The notes beneath the pieces are model-generated. The model was not told where the DNA came from. It did not search any database and saw only the letters and a list, made by a program, of their open reading frames with translations. Positions 34,613-34,770 of a stretch of DNA of 56,700 nucleotides are shown in pieces. Location: assembly GCF_003334255.1 (NCBI RefSeq), contig NZ_QOWU01000034.1; one strand, written 5' to 3'. Source of the stretch: Escherichia coli (GTDB lineage: Bacteria > Pseudomonadota > Gammaproteobacteria > Enterobacterales > Enterobacteriaceae). The translations under genes and the position numbers were made by a program. How positions within the stretch are numbered: position 1 is the first letter of the stretch; each line of letters begins with the position of its first letter.

Positions 34613-34658
34613 TCAATACCTCTGTAAGTCGCACATAGAGTAAGTTTCGAATGCACAA

Positions 34659-34675
34659 TAGCGTACACTTGTACG
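34659..34675 (-). promoter_or_regulatory. FabR operator-like palindrome in the fabB promoter
   Basis: Near-perfect palindrome agcgtacacttgtacgc 47-63 bp upstream of the fabB ATG, resembling the FabR site AGCGTACACGTGTTAGCT as I recall it. Confidence 0.55.
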
Positions 34676-34677
34676 CC

Positions 34678-34694
34678 GAACAAGTCCGATCAGC
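34678..34694 (-). promoter_or_regulatory. FadR-like site in the fabB promoter
   Basis: Minus strand ggctgatcggacttgtt, about 12/17 match to the FadR consensus AACTGGTCCGACCTGTT, just upstream of the FabR-like palindrome. Confidence 0.5.
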
Positions 34695-34770
34695 CATTTA
34701 ATAGAGAAATTTGCGCAGCCTTACACACATCGCTAAGATCGAGCCACCGCCTGTAAGACGAGTAACTTAC

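Follow-up and report, generated by a model that had tools for sequence, protein, structure and literature searches.

The fabB control region of Escherichia coli and the divergent promoter of mnmC

Described systems and the identity of the locus

FadR is a regulator of the GntR family, and FabR is a regulator of the TetR family whose binding to DNA is strengthened by unsaturated acyl thioesters. In E. coli K-12, fabB is reportedly activated by FadR and repressed by FabR, as described by Campbell and Cronan in 2001, by Zhang, Marrakchi and Rock in 2002 and by Feng and Cronan in 2011. The control of fabB by FadR and FabR is also cited in PMC4259882, PMC3896788 and PMC4273635, and a fabB promoter with adjoining sites for the activator FadR and the repressor FabR is already known and a textbook case. 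The fabA gene of E. coli carries a cassette of the same order and register, in which a FadR site is followed by an abutting FabR site. The cassettes of fabA and fabB are identical at 31 of 35 positions, and they share the 16-nt FadR core CTGATCGGACTTGTTC without any difference. Unlike fabB, fabA possesses additional promoters (PMC7083825); it is also reported to be more responsive to FadR and less responsive to FabR (PMC3896788), and no divergent mnmC-like neighbour is present in its probe sequence. In Salmonella Typhimurium, the orthologous spacer between fabB and STM2379 (mnmC) contains an identical cassette and is occupied by FabR in vivo, and in the transcriptome of the fabR mutant fabB responded whereas STM2379 was unlisted (PMC4804515). 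Finally, the published box and footprint of the CpxR–fabB system both fall within the spacer analyzed here (PMC7083825).

The window is the whole stretch of E. coli DNA that was analyzed, 56,700 nucleotides in length. Its segment 34300-35100 derives from the E. coli chromosome and was matched by all of the 5426 complete E. coli genomes (5426/5426), many of them at 100% identity, over genes that are annotated there as fabB and mnmC. The coding sequence of fabB (beta-ketoacyl-ACP synthase I) occupies 33392-34612 on the minus strand, according to the open reading frame list and the RefSeq annotation of identical DNA, and that of mnmC occupies 34771-36777 on the plus strand, according to the identity of the spacer to MG1655 and the RefSeq annotation. 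The two genes are divergent, with the ATG of fabB at 34612 and the GTG of mnmC at 34771. The spacer that separates them (34613-34770; 158 bp) is 100% identical to that of K-12 MG1655: the surrounding DNA presents 14 differences in 5001 bases and none of them falls in the spacer. Because the spacer is identical to MG1655 and the RefSeq annotation agrees, the identities of both genes are confirmed. The K-12 fabB promoter is the same locus as the one in the window, and the spacer, which shows no difference from it, contains the published FadR probe exactly.

All the features of the described system that can be checked were found at this locus, which is the fabB FadR/FabR region itself and not a mere look-alike. 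Overall, we estimate a probability of about 94% that the locus is the E. coli fabB promoter with its FadR and FabR operators, in a 158-bp spacer that also holds the divergent promoter of mnmC. No RNA family was detected when 34300-35100 was scanned against Rfam (E-value ≤ 1). A consensus scan of 34450-34950 for promoters and terminators, with a threshold of 9 of 12 positions, yielded no sigma-70-like site; the promoters of fabB and mnmC each match only 7 of 12 positions and lie below this threshold, so the scan is uninformative on the absence of promoters.

The FadR and FabR operators of fabB

The transcription start of fabB lies on the minus strand and was mapped by two methods: TSS-seq places it at 34648, 36 nt 5' of the ATG (position 2439663, 5'UTR of 36, 18 reads; PMC3415461 Table S1), and RACE places it at 34649, 37 bp 5' of the ATG (PMC7083825). 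We checked this numbering against the CpxR box that PMC7083825 locates at -112 to -98 and that corresponds to GTAAGgctgcGCAAA (34710-34724) in the window. The -10 hexamer TATTGT (34655-34660, minus strand), assigned from the mapped start and from conservation, reads TAnnGT across species and is followed by a conserved GC. The -35 hexamer TTGTTC (34678-34683, minus strand), assigned from the mapped start and its 17-bp distance to the -10 hexamer, is invariant in the alignment; it matches the consensus at three of six positions and shares 5 nt with the FadR site. The core promoter TTGTTC-N17-TATTGT is weak (7 of 12 consensus positions), which fits an activator-dependent promoter.

The FadR operator GGCTGATCGGACTTGTT is located at 34679-34695 on the minus strand, where it overlaps the fabB -35 hexamer, and its assignment relies on motif statistics, on a published probe and on conservation. 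The initial annotation had placed a FadR-like site at 34678-34694 (GCTGATCGGACTTGTTC on the fabB strand); the site is real, and aligning it with known FadR sites shifts the 17-mer (GGCTGATCGGACTTGTT on the fabB strand) by a single nucleotide. When CTGGTCNGACNTGTT was searched with at most one mismatch, this site was the sole match in the 56.7-kb window, for 0.03 matches expected by chance, and it departs from the core at one of the 13 specified positions. A weight-matrix scan, as the initial annotation had suggested, ranked the site sixth among 113,368 positions using a matrix built from five fad-gene sites only. Direct evidence of binding was published for exactly this sequence, since the segment 34649-34705 of the window is identical to the 57-bp probe fabB-R, which is shifted by purified wild-type FadR and not by the DNA-binding mutant W60G (PMC4259882). 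Consistent with activation, the expression of fabB-lacZ is reduced 2 to 2.5-fold in a fadR-defective strain (PMC4259882).

The FadR site is centred at -38 from the mapped fabB start, which fits the placement around -40 observed in FadR-activated promoters. From 34679-34695, where its site overlaps the -35 hexamer, FadR acts as an activator of fabB. The activation itself is published; the position at -38 is that of an activator touching the polymerase, and a contact mechanism is what we infer from it. FadR in general leaves the DNA upon binding long-chain acyl-CoA (PMC4259882).

The FabR operator is an 18-bp dyad at 34660-34677, to which no strand is assigned; it was recognized as an inverted repeat and from its motif match, and in Salmonella from ChIP-chip data and the derepression of fabB. 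At its heart is a perfect 7+2+7 palindrome, GCGTACA-ct-TGTACGC (34661-34676). The near-perfect palindrome that had been noticed at 34659-34675 is thus a genuine FabR-like site, slightly off centre, with coordinates 1-2 nt from those of the exact repeat. The 18-bp site matches the E. coli FabR motif AGCGTACACGTGTTCGCT, as quoted in PMC4273635, at 15 of 18 positions on either strand, for 0.02 matches expected in the window. In Salmonella, FabR ChIP-chip revealed an in vivo peak on the fabB–STM2379 spacer, and fabB was the most derepressed gene of the fabR mutant, with a 3.1-fold increase (PMC4804515). Secondary citations and this Salmonella orthologue indicate that FabR probably binds the E. coli site as well. 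The dyad extends from -11 to -28 relative to the fabB start, is centred at -19.5 and takes up essentially all of the 17 bp that separate the -35 and -10 hexamers. Because the dyad fills this spacer, a FabR dimer bound at 34660-34677 would be expected to exclude RNA polymerase and to block it at fabB. Jointly, FadR and FabR determine how fast unsaturated fatty acids are made.

These positions agree with the distances given in the initial annotation, which had both operators within 85 bp of the fabB start codon and the GTG of mnmC about 75 bp further on: at its distal edge, the FadR site is 83 bp away from the ATG (34612), and the GTG (34771) is 76 bp past this edge. The mapped start at 34648/34649, with FadR at -38 and FabR at -19.5, likewise places the fabB promoter at the operators and not elsewhere.

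We further analyzed the conservation of the spacer across 80 fabB loci of Enterobacterales, one per species. In 77 of the 80 loci, mnmC is located divergently upstream of fabB. The spacer measures 151-173 bp in most loci and 193-197 bp in Morganellaceae and in two metagenome-assembled genomes (L079 and L081). The 35-bp FadR–FabR cassette CTGATCGGACTTGTTCGGCGTACAAGTGTACGCTA presents zero to three substitutions in 71 of the 80 loci, with variable flanks, and the blocks conserved at 90% or more in this region are 34659-34662, 34664-34667, 34669-34673 and 34675-34693. Of the 77 loci linked to mnmC, 73 carry the 11-nt FadR core CAAGTCCGATC unchanged. Within Escherichia, polymorphisms of the spacer are found only outside the operators and the promoter hexamers. 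The FadR half-site is lost in the two Rosenbergiella loci (L044 and L055; GTATAGGGGGTTGTTC), which keep the FabR dyad and the spacing of the mnmC promoter. In insect symbionts (Schmidhempelia L072, Gullanella L075 and the Pantoea symbiont L065), mnmC was not detected upstream of fabB; their FadR sites are eroded and the FabR-like dyad persists longer.

Other FadR sites are present in the window. The FadR-like site AAGTGGTCTGACCTGAT (53553-53569) is located 27-43 bp upstream of the ATG of a 436-aa open reading frame (52216-53526), which we take by position to be fadI, with the frame at 50072-52216 taken as fadJ; the site presumably serves as the FadR operator for fadIJ, which form an operon. 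Two further sites (54237-54253 and 54261-54277) are found upstream of a 448-aa open reading frame (54357-55703) that we take to be fadL. Both are identical to the published probes fadL-FadR1 and fadL-FadR2 (PMC4259882). With these sites, we count the window as carrying four FadR-controlled promoters.

A divergent promoter for mnmC

Next to the cassette, the spacer contains a second block, AATTTGC (34708-34714), that is conserved at 90% or more. A fixed and ungapped stretch of variable sequence separates it from a third block, CGnTAAnAT (34731-34739). Judging from the sequence, the two blocks can be read as a putative sigma-70 promoter, TTGCGC-N17-TAAGAT, with a predicted start at A34746, a conserved base. 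Conservation defines the -35 hexamer TTGCGC (34711-34716), which together with an invariant AAT upstream covers 34708-34716 on the plus strand. The -10 hexamer TAAGAT (34734-34739, plus strand) is exactly 17 bp from it and reads TAnnAT or TAAACT across species. Downstream of the start at 34746 (plus strand), a 25-nt leader carries the ribosome-binding core GAG (34760-34762) and ends at the GTG start codon (34771-34773, plus strand), which is supported by conservation and is the annotated start in MG1655. The leader also contains a conserved C-TG motif (34750-34753) between the transcription start and the GAG core, whose positions 34750, 34752 and 34753 are each conserved at 90% or more.

TTGCnn was found as the mnmC -35 hexamer in 71 of 74 loci, at a fixed spacing of 17 bp, the only spacing scanned. 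The -10 hexamer was located by searching for TAnnnT at 26-36 nt from the start codon; its presence 30-34 nt before the mnmC start codon in all 74 loci is therefore true by construction, and the distance between the two is 30-33 nt in 73 of the 74 loci. In a single genome, the pattern TTGCGC-N17-TAAGAT is expected 0.57 times and is not significant alone, so the support for the promoter comes from its conservation. After the start had been predicted in this way, we located the published mnmC transcription start (2439761 of NC_000913.2, 278 reads, 5'UTR of 25; PMC3415461 Table S1), and it coincides exactly with position 34746 of the window. The same table (b2323 and b2324) thus lists 278 reads for mnmC and 18 for fabB, although counts are not strictly comparable between genes. 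Despite a match to only 7 of 12 consensus positions, the 278 reads indicate that the mnmC promoter is clearly active under the conditions of PMC3415461. It is a separate sigma-70 promoter and is most likely independent of FadR and FabR.

Two alternative interpretations of this segment were considered. The open reading frame finder extended mnmC to a frame of 688 aa starting at TTG 34711, a triplet that corresponds to the first three bases of the -35 hexamer. We rejected this start: in the majority of loci the aligned protein sequence starts at the GTG, length differences of 1-3 nt upstream of it disrupt the reading frame, and the mapped transcription start at 34746 is downstream of the TTG. 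The GTG, a weak start codon, is conserved in 70 of 74 loci. The AATTTGC block could also represent upstream-contact DNA for the fabB promoter, which is less likely, since it keeps a fixed distance from the mnmC -10 hexamer, while the interval that separates it from the FadR site changes by 10 nt in several families.

The mnmC promoter is overlapped by a published CpxR box. CpxR activates fabB under acid stress, and its box GTAAGgctgcGCAAA (34710-34724, minus strand) lies within a DNase footprint at 34706-34731 (PMC7083825). The box corresponds to -36 to -22 of the mnmC promoter and overlaps the -35 hexamer and the promoter spacer, an overlap that is not discussed in PMC7083825. The K-12 allele matches the CpxR direct repeat GTAAA-N5-GTAAA at 8 of 10 positions, and conservation across species is limited to the GCAAA half. 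The other half, GTAAG (34720-34724), is polymorphic: both the E. coli species representative (L002) and E. albertii (L003) carry GCCAG instead. In 1901 of the 5426 complete E. coli genomes, no megablast match was found for 34701-34746, which suggests that about 35% of them carry a variant in the middle of this stretch. To test the box, PMC7083825 replaced each half by CATCT in the chromosome (CATCT-N5-CATCT). This substitution is predicted to turn the mnmC -35 hexamer TTGCGC into GATGGC, so the phenotypes of the mutant may include lower expression of mnmC.

Spacing of the two promoters and possible reach of the regulators

Since both starts are mapped, the promoters of fabB and mnmC can be placed back to back, separated by 97 bp at their starts and by 27 bp at their -35 hexamers. 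Counted from the mnmC start, the FadR site is centred at -59 and the FabR site at -77.5. The segment between the promoters (34696-34707), to which no strand is assigned, is A/T-rich and presents low per-base conservation and a constrained length; it may serve as shared upstream-contact DNA for RNA polymerase. We measured the spacing between the mnmC -35 hexamer and the final base of GATCAG (34693) in the FadR site; 72 of 74 loci (one per species) fell into one of two classes, 16-18 nt or 26-28 nt. The shorter class comprises 53 loci and the longer class 19 loci (Yersiniaceae, Hafniaceae and Pectobacterium), in which the FadR centre is at -69 from the mnmC start. The two classes differ by approximately one helical turn. 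In Morganellaceae, the distance is 50-52 nt. The length of the fabB leader is unconstrained over these species, ranging between 61 and 82 nt. The spacing classes follow family boundaries, which implies few independent events. Taken as a pattern of sequence, the constrained distance between the FadR site and mnmC is compatible with regulatory coupling.

The conserved spacing could reflect an interplay between the promoters rather than shared regulators. In that case, the two polymerases would overlap in their upstream contacts around 34691-34704, or the promoters would be coupled through supercoiling, and FadR and FabR would act on mnmC only indirectly, through the occupancy of the fabB promoter by polymerase. 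With starts 97 bp apart, footprints extending to about -55 would indeed be expected to overlap, and the DNA between the promoters is A/T-rich, with a length that is constrained and a sequence that is not. However, this argument is purely geometric, and in the Salmonella fabR mutant the 3.1-fold increase of fabB is accompanied by no listed change of mnmC (PMC4804515). We consider this interpretation unlikely, with a small chance of being correct.

Alternatively, the region could be bidirectional, with FadR at -59 also modulating mnmC, for instance as an upstream activator acting through the C-terminal domain of the alpha subunit, and with FabR contributing little from -77.5. The mnmC promoter is real and back to back with that of fabB, the divergent pair is kept in 77 of the 80 loci, and the distance from FadR to the mnmC -35 hexamer remains in the 16-18 nt (53 loci) or 26-28 nt (19 loci) class across a variable intervening sequence, with a fabB leader that is free to vary (61-82 nt) in the same species. 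The fabB–STM2379 spacer was in fact named a possible dual target in 2016 by the authors of the Salmonella ChIP-chip study, who listed STM2379 among the possible targets (PMC4804515). On the other hand, our literature search found no expression data and no fadR-mutant data tying mnmC to FadR, and neither mnmC nor fabB was present in the PPTP-seq data. STM2379 is also missing from the genes tabulated as differentially expressed in the fabR mutant of Salmonella (PMC4804515). The spacing classes largely track the phylogeny and may result from one or two indel events; moreover, the 50-52 nt of Morganellaceae are out of phase, and Rosenbergiella, which is devoid of the FadR half-site, nevertheless retains the same spacing. 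We therefore regard a modulation of mnmC by FadR as rather improbable. The suggestion of the initial annotation that the fatty acid regulators may also influence the tRNA-modification gene is thus only partly sustained: the geometry allows it, and the absence of STM2379 from the fabR-mutant list speaks against an effect of FabR in Salmonella. The idea that mnmC is regulated from this spacer is a partly new proposal; for Salmonella, the dual target put forward in 2016 received no support from expression data.

A broader version of this idea, to which we give similarly long odds, views the spacer as a two-way switch in which FadR would tune mnmC along with fabB and CpxR would repress mnmC while activating fabB. 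FadR would act from a position one or two turns of the helix away from the mnmC -35 hexamer, on its upstream side, and the CpxR box covers this hexamer. Finally, short motifs can arise by chance, but the notion that the FadR and FabR motifs are fortuitous resemblances without regulatory role is refuted and practically excluded by chance expectations of 0.02-0.03 per window, by the identity of the sequence to an experimentally bound probe and by the near-invariance of the sites across a bacterial order next to variable neighbours.

The fabB control region is a classic case of the balance between saturated and unsaturated fatty acids, and its confirmation in this genome adds no new biology. The small additions of our analysis are a base-by-base map of the 158-bp spacer, the conserved back-to-back arrangement of the mnmC and fabB promoters at a constrained distance, and the overlap of the published CpxR box and of its test substitution with the mnmC -35 hexamer. 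If the spacer did operate as a two-way switch, the conserved pairing of the genes and the spacing of 16-18 or 26-28 nt would represent its evolutionary trace. A modulation of mnmC by FadR would tie the modification of wobble uridines in tRNAs to the fatty-acid status of the cell and, should mnmC respond to FadR or to CpxR, the mnm5s2U modification of tRNAs would be linked to membrane lipid status or to envelope stress.
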